Shown here: positions 13,493 through 17,413 of the stretch, piece by piece
How positions within the stretch are numbered: the first letter of the stretch is position 1
Layout of the letters: each line of letters begins with the position of its first letter
NCBI GenBank assembly: GCA_021498095.1
Contig: JAIZWK010000001.1
Coordinates: forward strand, 3,510,001-3,542,000
Source: Candidatus Harpocratesius repetitus
GTDB taxonomy: Archaea; Asgardarchaeota; Lokiarchaeia; Sigyniarchaeales; Promethearchaeaceae
Direction of reading: 5' to 3'
DNA length: 32,000 nt
Position numbers and translations under genes: made by a program
Notes under the pieces: generated by a model
Told to the model about the DNA's origin: nothing
Seen by the model: only the letters and a program-made list of their open reading frames with translations
Database searches by the model: none

Positions 13493-13698
13493 TCCATTCA
13501 ATTTTTTCAATTCTCGCTCATATTTACAATAGAAAAGAGTTAAATCCATAGAATTAACGTAAGTCATGAAAATAGAATGTAAAGACGATCATAGAATCAA
13601 AATAATAATACTATTCTTATATAAATAATTCAAATTTTCAAATTTTGTAAAGAAATAACCGATAAAAGAATATATACAATTGAACAAATATATAATAT

Positions 13699-13756
13699 AA
13701 GAGTTGTAATCGGAAATAAAGACTCTACTTAAGTATTATTTCCAATTGTAATTCTT
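13699..13756 (+). ncRNA. 21-bp RNA hairpin in the rnc leader (candidate RNase III site or small-RNA precursor)
   Basis: 13699-13719 pairs with 13736-13756: 17 Watson-Crick, 3 G·U (on the + transcript), 1 C·A; 16-nt loop. Confidence 0.65.
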
Positions 13757-13828
13757 TACATGCTCAATCCTTAAATTGATCTTGGGTTAAATCTTATTTC
13801 AATTTTAGAGATATGGAGGAACATACAT

Positions 13829-14632
13829 ATGGCTCAAGAAATCTCTCCAGAATTTAAAGAAAAACTATTTAATTGGCTAAAAAAACAAAGAATCATAAAC
13901 ATGGACATAAAAATCTTAATTACAGCCTTCACCCATCCATCATATAAAGGAGTCTTTCCAGAAGTGGAAGATTATGAAAGACTAGAATTCTTAGGAGATG
14001 CGGTTTTGGATCTGGTTTCTGCAGAAGATTTAATCAAACACAGCTCTGCGAATGAAGGAGTATTAACAGAACGTCGAAAACAATTAGTAAATAATGAAAA
14101 TCTTTCCCAAATTTTTGATAGATTAAAGATATCATCTTTTATTCGAACTGCACCTCATTACAAGCCTTCTATTAAGGATAAAGCAAATTTTATTGAAGCC
14201 TTTTTTGGAGCTCTCTTTTTAGAGCACCGCTATGAATATTGCGTTATAGTTTGGCGACAATTTCAAGAAAAAATGGGTAAAATAAAAAAGAAGATTTATC
14301 ATGCTCCATTATCTCCTGAAGATGAACAAAATAAGGAAGAATTGAAACAATTTTATCGCTCAATTGGATTAACCCCAAAAAATGCAAAATCAATGTTACA
14401 AGAACTTAACCAAAAACAAGGATTAGATTTACCCAATTATGAATTAATTGAACATTTTGGACCTGACCATAATCCAACTTTTCGAGTAAAAGTATCAGGT
14501 ATTTTTTTCACAGGACCCCCAAAATGGACAAGATCAGCAATAGGAGAAGGTAAGAGTAAAAAAATTGCCGAAATTAGAGCTGCAGAGAAATTATGTGATC
14601 AAATCTATTTAGATTACATCCCGTTTGATTAA
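13829..14632 (+). CDS. rnc: Ribonuclease III (RNase III domain + dsRBD)
   Basis: ERLEFLGDAVL signature, ANFIEAFFGAL, C-terminal dsRBD (AKSMLQE...GPDH...GEGKSKKIAEIRAA); SD GGAGG at 13815-13819. Confidence 0.96.
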   Translation: MAQEISPEFKEKLFNWLKKQRIINMDIKILITAFTHPSYKGVFPEVEDYERLEFLGDAVLDLVSAEDLIKHSSANEGVLTERRKQLVNNENLSQIFDRLKISSFIRTAPHYKPSIKDKANFIEAFFGALFLEHRYEYCVIVWRQFQEKMGKIKKKIYHAPLSPEDEQNKEELKQFYRSIGLTPKNAKSMLQELNQKQGLDLPNYELIEHFGPDHNPTFRVKVSGIFFTGPPKWTRSAIGEGKSKKIAEIRAAEKLCDQIYLDYIPFD

Positions 14633-14689
14633 GAATAGAAATCAATGAAAGTGAAAAAAATAAAAAGGAAAATTTTTTATTAATATAAT

Positions 14690-14939
14690 AAGATCTCACG
14701 GAAAATGAACCGGAAAGTATCTGAAGGTAAATTGACCGCGAAGACTGTTATATTATTTAATTTATTCATAAGATGGTGCAAAATATAGAAATTTTGCATA
14801 AATTATGGATAAATTAAATATTATCTGTGTTCGCATTCATTGCTAGTATCTCCAGATGTTTTCCAGTTTATTTTACGAGAATTACTCTAGGTCATATTAG
14901 GATTATCTAAGAGAATTCTCTATTTTCCTGTGAGATTTT
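14690..14939 (+). ncRNA. ~250-nt branched structured RNA between rnc and ago
   Basis: Closing stem 14690-14706/14922-14939 (17 bp, 1 bulge); long hairpin ~14702-14874 with 25-, 22- and 8-bp segments; short hairpin 14877-14920; all paired by hand. Confidence 0.7.
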
Positions 14940-14959
14940 GATAAAAAAGTGGTATTGAT

Positions 14960-17413
14960 ATGTCAAAATCTCAAAATAAAGGAAGAAAATCAAATGATGC
15001 ACCTTTAGCATCCCCCTGCTGTCCACAGAAAAAGAAAATAGATCTTGAAATGAATCTTTTTCCTGTGAAGATTTCCAATCTTAAAATCAGTATATATTCA
15101 TGGTTAATTTTTCCAAAAATCGATAATTATAAAGTACAAAGAAATATTCTTGAAATTGCTTTAAGTGAAGAAGCATTATACGAATACATCATTCAAAAAA
15201 ACAAGATCTATCAAAAAAAAAGGCATCCAAATATAAAAAGAGTTGTGCTTTTTCAGAATAAAGAATTTCAAATTGAAATAAATCACCTTGAAACGGTTTA
15301 TCTTTTAGATAATCCAACACTTCAAAACGAAATTTTTGGAAGTATTTGCCAAACTGTGGGATTCGAGCAAATAGGACATAATTACTATTATTCAGCAGAA
15401 AGACAATCCTCACAACTCACACAATCTACAAAAGAATCATTAAAAAGGATATTTCCAGCAATTGAAATAGATGGAGGCAAATACTATTTAAAACAAGGAC
15501 TAACAACTGCGATTCATTCCACCAAGAAAAATTTTTCGATAGATCAAGGAAAAAATGCTATTTCAAATGTTGTTGAATTAGAGCAAACATCAAAACTCAT
15601 TCAAAAAAAGAATTTATTAGAAATAATAATGGATTTGAATAGAAAGGTTAAAGATCATCACAAGATTGAAAATTTACTCATTGGTTCAAGATTTATTACG
15701 CACTACAATAACAGAATATATACAATTCATGGAATTGCTTGGAATAAAGATCCTACTTCTACATTTCAAATTCGCTCAAAGTTGCATCAAAATTTAGAAA
15801 TCACTTTTGAAGAATACTACAAAAAGAATTATCAATTAAAAATTTCAGATCTCCATCAACCTTTAATTATTTATTATCCAATGTCTTCTCAAAAGAGTGC
15901 TACTTCATCAGGATCTCAAGATATACTCTACTTTTTACCAGAGTTTTGTCATCTTTTTGGACTATCAAACCTTGATGCTGATAATTTCAGAATTCGGCAA
16001 GAAATCACCCGAAATACCCAAATGTCACCTTCAGATAGATATAGAAAACTCAAAACATTTGTAGAGAACCAAGATATTCTTGAATTTTTTAAAGTATGGG
16101 GTTTAGATATCGATTCACGGATGATTTCTATGTCTGGAATAAAACTACCAAGTCTAGAGATACAGACTCAAACAGGTGTTTTTCCAATCAATTTTGAACA
16201 ATCAAATTGGCTTTCATTATTAAATCGCTCGCAAGTAATTGATGCTCCTGAATTAAAAAAGTGGATGATATTATATCCAAAAAAATCTATGTCTTTGCAA
16301 GAAGCAAGAAAATTTAGCAATGATTTTCAAAAAATTGCCCAACAAATGGGAATGGTATGTCGACCACCTCAATTACAGGGAGTTTTTGATATGACAAAGT
16401 TTCTGGCAATATTAAAGAAAAATCCTTCTCAACATCATATAAATTCAATCCAATTAATTCTCACAATTACCCCTAATAGGAACAAGACATGTTATCGGAA
16501 AATTAAACAGCTGTGTTATCGAGATCTGGGAATTGCCAATCAAAATGTTGTGCTTAAAAATTTAAGAGATCAAAAAAGAAGAATGCCAATAATCCGAAAT
16601 TTAGTAAGGCAAATTATTTGCAAGGTTCCAAATTTTAATACAAAATATGGCGGGGCTTTATGGAAAATCAAAAATAATTCCATCCCTGACAAAACTTTAA
16701 TTGTTGGAATTGATGTTTGGCATGGCCGTCCCGGAATAGACAAATCTATTGCCGGCATCGTCTTTTCAACTGATAAAGGCTTACATTATACAGCAAATTA
16801 TACAATAACTCCAAGAAAAGGACTGGAATTCATCCACAATTTAGGAAAAATCATAATTACACAACTACAGAATCATTATAACGCAACAAGACAATACTTT
16901 GAAAATATATTAATTTTTCGCGATGGAGTAGGAAACACCCAGTATAACAAGATTTTACAAGAAGAATTCAAGTCTATTCAACAAGAACTAACCAATTCAT
17001 CCATTTTTAGTGAAAAACATCCAAAAATTGCAATAATCTTGGTGAATAAACGAATAAATCGCCGGCTATTTCATAAAAACAAACAAGGACAGATATTGAA
17101 CCCCAAACCCGGAACTTTTATAGAAGATCAATATATAAAATCAGAATTTTCTAATTATTATTTAGTACCCCACTTTTCTCGTTTTGGAACAACCCGACCG
17201 ATTCATATTTCGGTAATTTATAACAATACAAAATACGTTAATTTCCAATTTGTTGAAATTGCAAATATTTTATGTCATTTGAATTACAATTGGGCAGGAA
17301 CAGTTCGCATACCAGCATCTGTGGAATATGCCCATAAAGTTGCCGACTTCATCGGATCAAATCAAATTACATCAATTGCACCAGAATTACTACAAACTCA
17401 ATTCTATTTGTAA
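14960..17413 (+). CDS. ago: Long eukaryote/PIWI-like Argonaute with catalytic DEDH tetrad (probably HrAgo1)
   Basis: PAZ (YNNRIY...TFEEYYKKNY...FLPEFC), MID (YRKIKQ...NQNV...QIICK), PIWI (GIDV D585, E623, RDG D655, YAHK H792, GTTRP, LCHLNYNW); 817 aa. Confidence 0.97.
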   Translation: MSKSQNKGRKSNDAPLASPCCPQKKKIDLEMNLFPVKISNLKISIYSWLIFPKIDNYKVQRNILEIALSEEALYEYIIQKNKIYQKKRHPNIKRVVLFQNKEFQIEINHLETVYLLDNPTLQNEIFGSICQTVGFEQIGHNYYYSAERQSSQLTQSTKESLKRIFPAIEIDGGKYYLKQGLTTAIHSTKKNFSIDQGKNAISNVVELEQTSKLIQKKNLLEIIMDLNRKVKDHHKIENLLIGSRFITHYNNRIYTIHGIAWNKDPTSTFQIRSKLHQNLEITFEEYYKKNYQLKISDLHQPLIIYYPMSSQKSATSSGSQDILYFLPEFCHLFGLSNLDADNFRIRQEITRNTQMSPSDRYRKLKTFVENQDILEFFKVWGLDIDSRMISMSGIKLPSLEIQTQTGVFPINFEQSNWLSLLNRSQVIDAPELKKWMILYPKKSMSLQEARKFSNDFQKIAQQMGMVCRPPQLQGVFDMTKFLAILKKNPSQHHINSIQLILTITPNRNKTCYRKIKQLCYRDLGIANQNVVLKNLRDQKRRMPIIRNLVRQIICKVPNFNTKYGGALWKIKNNSIPDKTLIVGIDVWHGRPGIDKSIAGIVFSTDKGLHYTANYTITPRKGLEFIHNLGKIIITQLQNHYNATRQYFENILIFRDGVGNTQYNKILQEEFKSIQQELTNSSIFSEKHPKIAIILVNKRINRRLFHKNKQGQILNPKPGTFIEDQYIKSEFSNYYLVPHFSRFGTTRPIHISVIYNNTKYVNFQFVEIANILCHLNYNWAGTVRIPASVEYAHKVADFIGSNQITSIAPELLQTQFYL

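Follow-up and report, generated by a model that had tools for sequence, protein, structure and literature searches.

A GGAA box shared by hairpins before the RNase III and Argonaute genes of 'Candidatus Harpocratesius repetitus'

What, beyond adjacency, might connect an RNase III gene and the gene of a PIWI-like Argonaute that stand next to each other in an archaeon? The question is raised by the gene order rnc - hrAgo1 - SF1 helicase in 'Candidatus Harpocratesius repetitus' (Hr), whose genome is one contig of 4.36 Mb with 31% G+C, and whose Argonaute, HrAgo1, is more closely related to eukaryotic PIWI proteins than any other prokaryotic protein known. The paper describing HrAgo1 reports the rnc-ago-helicase arrangement and proposes that the neighbouring rnc and helicase genes take part in guide making, adding that the mechanisms of the neighbouring proteins still require experimental validation; its small-RNA data come from E. 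coli carrying the recoded open reading frame (ORF) only. That paper is silent on intergenic RNA structures, and no description of rnc or ago leader hairpins was found in the literature searched. We analyzed a stretch of 32,000 nucleotides (nt) that holds this gene order (contig JAIZWK010000001.1, positions 3,510,001 to 3,542,000, forward strand; hereafter the window), in which no Rfam family reached its gathering score. For this locus and its relatives we computed structures, conservation, covariation, gene positions and the box shared by two hairpins, one before rnc (hairpin 1) and one before hrAgo1 (hairpin 2), to which an initial annotation had drawn attention. The motif common to both hairpins proved to be the conserved core of two hairpin families that are related to each other, and it occurs above chance. 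We propose, with moderate confidence, that this 'GGAA box' is the core of two RNA leader hairpins, a short one before rnc and a long one before ago, and that it is most likely read by the RNase III of the locus. The two genes are:

13829..14632, + strand: rnc, class-1 RNase III of 267 amino acids (aa), with an RNase III domain plus a domain that binds double-stranded RNA (dsRBD) (Pfam PF00636, PF14622, PF00035)
14960..17413, + strand: hrAgo1, PIWI-like Argonaute of 817 aa, residues 1-817 identical to PDB 8r3z chain A, with Pfam PAZ and Piwi domains

The four 9-mers of the motif lie exactly where the initial annotation had placed them, and in both minimum free energy (MFE) folds the arms pair mutually with the C facing the A. 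The pair next to the mismatch covaries as had been noted, being U-A in hairpin 1 and C-G in hairpin 2. The halves of the box are:

13708..13716, + strand: 5' half in hairpin 1, AAUCGGAAA (AATCGGAAA), with C13711 facing A13744
13739..13747, + strand: 3' half in hairpin 1, UUUCCAAUU (TTTCCAATT), opposite 13708-13716
14708..14716, + strand: 5' half in hairpin 2, AACCGGAAA, with C14711 facing A14865
14860..14868, + strand: 3' half in hairpin 2, UUUCCAGUU (TTTCCAGTT), opposite 14708-14716

Hairpin 1 is a member of a family of rnc leaders and has the following composition, in base pairs (bp):

13699..13756, + strand: hairpin 1, rnc-leader hairpin, in which the C·A mismatch sits between stems of 12 bp and 8 bp and a small internal loop precedes the last 3 bp

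It has an MFE of -16.5 kcal/mol (z -3.0) and ends 72 nt 5' of the rnc ATG, with a GGAGG Shine-Dalgarno motif in between. The layout seen in Hr (AGAGU, about 4 variable bases, AAUUGGAAAU, a loop, AUUUCCAAUU and a pyrimidine-rich end) is also found 5' of rnc in genome G017 (locus L025) and in locus L006, and we built a covariance model, R1, from these three leaders. On the Hr genome, hairpin 1 was the only strong match of R1 (78.6 bits). Searched against 208 kb, the model also matched just 5' of rnc in L029 and in L027, to which L035 is identical (E-values of 5e-4 and 2e-3), and the matches in L025, L006, L029 and L027 all sit 40-130 nt 5' of rnc, so that a hairpin of this type precedes rnc in 5/5 Lokiarchaeal loci holding such a hairpin. 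We dismissed four weak R1 matches in another family, which were not beside rnc and whose number equalled the chance expectation. Across the five sequences of the hairpin-1 family, 90.9% of cells pair, versus 41-54% when the partners are slid; four pairs change on both sides in a compensatory manner, and one G·U pair is kept in 4/5 sequences. The Hr genome holds a second rnc copy (Hr2; genome position 58393-59184, L023:4388-5191), whose protein is 68% identical to that of the first and which lies directly 3' of a MarR-family gene, with neither a leader hairpin nor an ago. In the Rnc protein tree, Hr2 clusters with rnc of the same-genus genome G014, these two hairpin-free genes forming one subclade, and the genes bearing hairpin 1 are scattered across the whole clade.

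The rnc-ago spacer (about 327-330 nt), which contains hairpin 2, folds at -96.3 kcal/mol (z -7.8). By the method applied to 60 random Hr intergenic stretches of the same length, its z was -8.9, and those stretches gave a mean of -0.3, a standard deviation of 1.3 and a minimum of -3.9. The fold consists of a basal stem (P1), a long imperfect arm and a side hairpin (P3), located as follows:

14689..14701, + strand: P1 basal stem, 5' arm, pairing with 14928-14940 at pair probabilities of 0.64-1.0
14702..14874, + strand: long arm of hairpin 2, 173 nt, about 65 bp, imperfect, scoring 122 bits with the model R2 introduced below
14877..14920, + strand: side hairpin P3, about 17 bp, flanked by the long arm and by P1's 3' arm, without a counterpart at this position in G017
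14928..14940, + strand: P1 basal stem, 3' arm, overlapping the conserved GAUUUUGAUA (14934-14943)

The box helix in hairpin 2 is predicted at pair probabilities of 0.985-1.0. P1 had been put forward as a third instance of the motif (GGAAAAU at 14700-14706 against AUUUUCC at 14922-14928, with U14929 bulged), which did not hold: this pairing is a suboptimal register, 1.7 kcal/mol less favourable than the best fold and predicted at pair probabilities of 0.08-0.35, and the same columns read UUGAAAA, CACAAA and AAGAGA in other loci. G017 keeps a stem, AUCUUAU/GUGAGAU, at the place of P1. As a separate observation, the element GAUUUUGAYA (window 14934-14943), which ends in a short U run, is kept in Hr, G017 and L006, at 20-30 nt 5' of the start codon. 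An origin of hairpin 2 from a miniature inverted-repeat transposable element or another repeat was rejected, the hairpin being single-copy in the Hr genome; in a self-BLAST inverted-repeat scan of this genome it came third, the two entries with higher bit scores being AT-only palindromes that are far less stable.

Related loci hold counterparts of hairpin 2, as a two-arm profile scan found box-bearing long hairpins at three places:

L006 5294-5455: long hairpin before ago
L008 5668-5832: long hairpin before ago
L025 2809-2974 (G017): long hairpin after rnc

The long hairpins of Hr, G017, L006 and L008 align along both arms and measure 173, 162, 158 and 161 nt, respectively, from the first to the last conserved pair. 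Their consensus comprises 37 pairs, 19 of which still pair through changes on both sides; 89% of cells pair in the alignment of four sequences, versus 37-58% with partners slid, and none of 500 shuffles reached any of the measures. The G017 long hairpin and the L008 region are also more stable than shuffled sequences (z -5.7 and z -6.4). A profile trained on the three foreign long hairpins ranked hairpin 2 first in the Hr genome with a score of 50.0, the next score (32.3) being its own reverse strand. In L006, the long hairpin also occurs a second time, as a degenerate copy immediately 3' of rnc (L006:4236-4409; E 0.2 with R2, a covariance model built from long hairpins only); ORFs of 48 and 175 aa, neither matching Pfam, separate this copy from the intact long hairpin before ago.

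The two families share one basal helix, 5'-AAUYGGAA-3' / 5'-UUCCARUU-3', and can be found from one another. In a search of 204 kb, the next-best matches of R2 after the long hairpins were the leader hairpins of G017, L006 and Hr (E-values of 0.012, 0.048 and 0.054), and in a MAFFT alignment the long hairpin of L008 matched the short leaders along both of its arms. We then tabulated the box position by position in nine hairpins (5 leader, 4 long). The pairs of the GGA/UCC core (G-C, G-C, A-U) are kept in 8/9 hairpins, with one changed to G·U (L027) and one to C·C (L029), and the A-U pairs at positions -3 and -4 are invariant except for one cell. Exactly one non-standard pair occurs at -1 or -2 in seven of the nine: C·A in both Hr hairpins and in hairpin 2 of G017, U·U in hairpin 1 of L006, and U·C in L027 and in the ago-upstream hairpins of L006 and L008. 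These two positions thus hold 7 of the 15 mismatches among 153 cells (Fisher p 3.5e-4), and the p-value is unchanged when five independent events in seven lineages are counted. The initial annotation had described the C·A as conserved. What stands of this is its recurrence in hairpin 2 of G017, where the adjacent pair is U-A instead of the C-G of Hr, a true compensatory change, together with the family-wide tendency towards a non-standard pair beside the GG; C·A as such is not kept, since the mismatch before ago in L006 and L008 is U·C and lies one position farther out, and the hairpin-1 orthologues, considered below, have a standard pair.

Could the recurrence of the box be a chance match, or the trace of a duplication with no function of its own? 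The sequence AAYCGGAAA...TTTCCARTT, for which the initial annotation had suggested a genome-wide search, occurs 6 times within 200 nt on both strands of the Hr genome, and only the two rnc sites fold as hairpins. Helices with a GGAAA:UUUCC core and three further pairs on each side number 28 genome-wide, including 5 with C·A at -1, two of which are hairpins 1 and 2. We did not rely on either count because the pattern had been defined from the data. Other simple statistics did not set the locus apart: the unweighted consensus matches 65,337 sites of this AT-rich genome with at most 5 mismatches, strict TGGAA/TTCCA helix counts in Hr are not discriminating, CGGAAA clustering is unremarkable (41 triples within 1 kb genome-wide), and the flanks of hairpins 1 and 2 have no further similarity (p 0.2-0.87). 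A leader-type two-arm profile, trained on four foreign rnc-leader hairpins and the L008 ago-upstream hairpin, scored hairpin 2 weakly, with about 505 Hr genome sites scoring equally (p ~0.02 for the spacer); a high-scoring match at genome position 3049080-3049288 was dismissed, as it falls within a coding gene and is no more structured than expected (z -0.7). The abundance of loose matches and the dissimilar flanks are what chance or bare inheritance would predict. Against both stand the persistence of the box at Rnc protein identities of only 44-61% between loci, with compensatory changes at neighbouring stem positions, and the ability of the two families to find each other in model searches, so that we consider this explanation extremely unlikely.

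Whether the box acts as RNA or as DNA bears on what could read it. A transcription factor that co-regulates rnc and ago by binding the box as a palindromic operator, or as a promoter-proximal element, would fit an invariant and nearly palindromic box (AATTGGAA/TTCCAATT) that lies close to AT-rich, TATA-like sequence, and the rnc paralogue Hr2 follows a MarR gene. The evidence nevertheless points to RNA elements, because the variable parts of the stems stay complementary through compensatory changes, because one G·U pair persists and folding favours the sense strand in 7/9 hairpins (for the Hr spacer, -90.2 kcal/mol on the + strand versus -72.2 on the antisense), and because the spacing of the box halves differs strongly between the families, being 27-30 nt in the leaders and about 145 nt in the long hairpins. 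We therefore regard a DNA operator as very unlikely. In Hr, L029 and L008 the base of the hairpin is preceded at about 26 nt by a TATA-like sequence, and Shine-Dalgarno motifs lie downstream; from these signals we infer the transcript boundaries, which would most likely place each hairpin at the 5' end of the rnc or ago message, or close to it. Among the sequencing runs listed for window 13600-15000 and 13690-14965 there was no RNA run, and the one DNA run containing the stretch is probably the source sample.

The distribution of the hairpins across genomes is narrow. Among 151 genomes of the class searched with R1 and R2, either element was found only in Hr and G017. Relatives of HrAgo1 are rare, occurring in 1/161 class genomes (G012), and Rnc relatives are commoner. 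Word-index searches returned no close HrAgo1 relatives, and an exhaustive profile search added three environmental ones (P0003, P0004 and P0008); another candidate, P0083, was discarded as a eukaryotic gene. Locus L006 is arranged as rnc, spacer, ago, and L008 as trp operon, 404 nt, ago, with no adjacent rnc. The arrangement around P0008 was given as rnc, 389 nt, ago, bpMoxR. In G017, whose genome is 74% complete, no ago was detected, and rnc is followed by a radical SAM enzyme gene and then by bpMoxR and VWA genes. The start region of this radical SAM gene (L025:3133-3187) is 77% identical to that of hrAgo1 (window 14928-14980), including ATG TCA AAA TC (MSKS); taken together with the bpMoxR gene that G017 and P0008 both have in this neighbourhood, this suggests that ago was probably lost or replaced in G017. 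The SF1 helicase is missing in G017, L008 and G012. In G012, an extra ORF of 155 aa with an RNase III domain only lies directly 3' of ago (L005:7701-8168).

Given an RNA element, the shared box is probably a common control or processing signal of an RNA-silencing-like gene cluster, and we infer that its reader, plausibly, is the RNase III. This is the most economical choice because the lower stems span about two helical turns, because hairpin 1 always precedes rnc, and because E. coli offers a precedent, its RNase III cutting a structure in its own 5' untranslated region according to PMC5371410 (citing Matsunaga 1996). The hairpin-1 family resembles the E. coli rncO leader (Bardwell 1989; Matsunaga 1996, as cited in PMC5371410) in that a stem-loop whose double-stranded RNA (dsRNA) spans some two helical turns lies 5' of the rnc coding region. 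About 20 bp or more of dsRNA would be expected of an rncO-type leader; hairpin 1 has 21 stacked positions in Hr (12 bp, the C·A and 8 bp) and 20-24 pairs in its orthologues. The proposed logic, an enzyme cutting its own leader, would also be alike. The Hr leader differs in being archaeal and without sequence relation to rncO, and in that its box recurs in a second, much longer hairpin before an Argonaute gene.

A mechanism of this kind would run as follows. As sense-strand RNA, most likely in the 5' untranslated regions of the two messages, the hairpins would be the active form; the dsRBD and the catalytic dimer of Rnc would dock on the box-bearing lower stem (about 21-22 bp) and then cut it. 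Cutting of the rnc leader would produce negative autoregulation, as with E. coli rncO, and cutting of the ago leader would control the ago message or bring about its maturation, possibly releasing 5'-phosphorylated duplexes that HrAgo1 could load. Comparable loops are known from eukaryotes, where hairpins in the DGCR8 mRNA are cut by Drosha and where miR168/AGO1 and miR162/DCL1 feedback operates in plants, all experimentally shown. By analogy, the Hr hairpins would likewise be RNA elements in the messages of silencing factors, read by the silencing machinery. The determinants of Drosha substrates (basal UG, CNNC and mismatched GHG) are not present as such in the Hr hairpins, and the likeness to the mismatched GHG, or to the proximal and distal boxes of bacterial RNase III substrates, is an analogy that goes as far as a box with an adjacent mismatch in the lower stem. 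If RNase III does read the box, the two hairpins would be the first cis-RNA element linking RNase III to Argonaute in archaea and would bear on the origin of substrate recognition of the Dicer/Drosha type; otherwise they are still two new structured RNA families limited to a small Lokiarchaeal clade. In either case the two box-bearing hairpins provide concrete candidate substrates and control elements for the rnc-hrAgo1 locus.

Several points weigh against this interpretation. The link between box and RNase III draws on gene neighbourhood and on the length of the double-stranded stem, and bacterial-type RNase III has little positive sequence specificity, so that an invariant box may indicate a different reader. 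The column of the C·A reads U-A in 4/4 hairpin-1 orthologues. G012 has an rnc-ago pair, but its 760-nt spacer (L005), strongly structured (z -7.6), carries other hairpins and no clear GGAA box. For hairpin 2 of G017 and hairpin 1 of L006, the antisense strand gives the slightly better fold. Sample sizes are small (5 leader and 4 long sequences), and the consensus structure of the long hairpins was derived from the same alignment that was used for the pair counts.

The box could accordingly belong to conserved RNA elements with another reader (HrAgo1, the SF1 helicase, or a ribosomal or other RNA-binding protein), or the hairpins could be only protective 5' stem-loops or translation regulators that RNase III does not cleave. 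An invariant sequence inside a helix is unusual for class-1 RNase III substrates, the E. coli sites being without a striking consensus as described in PMC5371410, and the hairpins persist with either gene alone, in G017 without ago and in L008 without an adjacent rnc. Hairpin 1, on the other hand, stands before rnc in 5/5 loci with the two-turn stem length that RNase III requires, and no alternative candidate is conserved in all loci, the helicase being absent from the three named above. We hold another reader to be a real possibility, though an unlikely one, and retain cleavage by RNase III as the preferred interpretation.

Hairpin 2 might instead be mainly a guide-RNA precursor, similar to a precursor microRNA (pre-miRNA) or a hairpin RNA, diced by RNase III and loaded into HrAgo1, with the box as a seed-type target site on the rnc leader. 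Like pre-miRNAs and long hairpin RNA precursors, it has an imperfect stem of about 65 bp, and this 173-nt arm, of suitable length, lies directly between the processing RNase III and a protein of the PIWI/AGO type that uses 5'-phosphorylated RNA guides. The length is conserved in the family (158-173 nt), and the HrAgo1 paper reports that the protein binds RNAs of 15-25 nt that carry a 5' phosphate and that, in human cells, it functions with a hairpin precursor. A conserved mature arm, however, was not found among the four long hairpins: only the basal box is invariant, and the stem outside it covaries freely, with the 19 of 37 pairs changed on both sides, which leaves no conserved mature guide sequence. 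Nor did hairpin 2 have complementary targets above chance in the Hr genome, the best being 16-mers that were equalled by shuffled queries, and G017 keeps the long hairpin in an incomplete genome with no ago detected. A guide precursor as the main role of hairpin 2 is for these reasons rather doubtful.

The most far-reaching version of RNase III cleavage would make the hairpins native substrates of an Asgard 'proto-Dicer', in which RNase III would cut the ago leader, HrAgo1 would load the duplexes, and guides and enzyme would feed back on the rnc and ago messages through the box, in a circuit older than the eukaryotic miRNA pathways; we consider this speculative and improbable as a whole. A prokaryotic parallel, AmAgo, is encoded beside an RNase thought or shown to make its guides, the HEPN RNase Agap (PMC11162769), and in this respect resembles the Hr locus. 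There, however, according to the abstract of that report, the enzyme is a HEPN RNase that makes single-strand cuts, the guides carry 5'-OH ends and the targets are DNA, and a structured cis-RNA is not described in the abstract.

The Rnc of Hr carries the ERLEFLGD signature in alignments. Compared with solved structures, its best matches were the RNase III domains of plant DCL4 and of Drosha (E-values of ~1e-17 to 4e-18), most bacterial RNase III structures scoring below these (~2e-14; Campylobacter 3n3w, 5e-17). One further structure was predicted at the 3' end of the gene:

14659..14681, + strand: small A/U hairpin ending in T6, just 3' of the rnc stop codon, identified from its fold

This hairpin may be an archaeal termination signal dividing rnc from the structured spacer. 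Two more unusually stable hairpins were noted in the Hr genome outside the window, at 250009-250266 (-69.7 kcal/mol) and at 1859520-1859715 (-59.7 kcal/mol), and the latter includes a GUCGGAAG/AUUUCCGAC helix.

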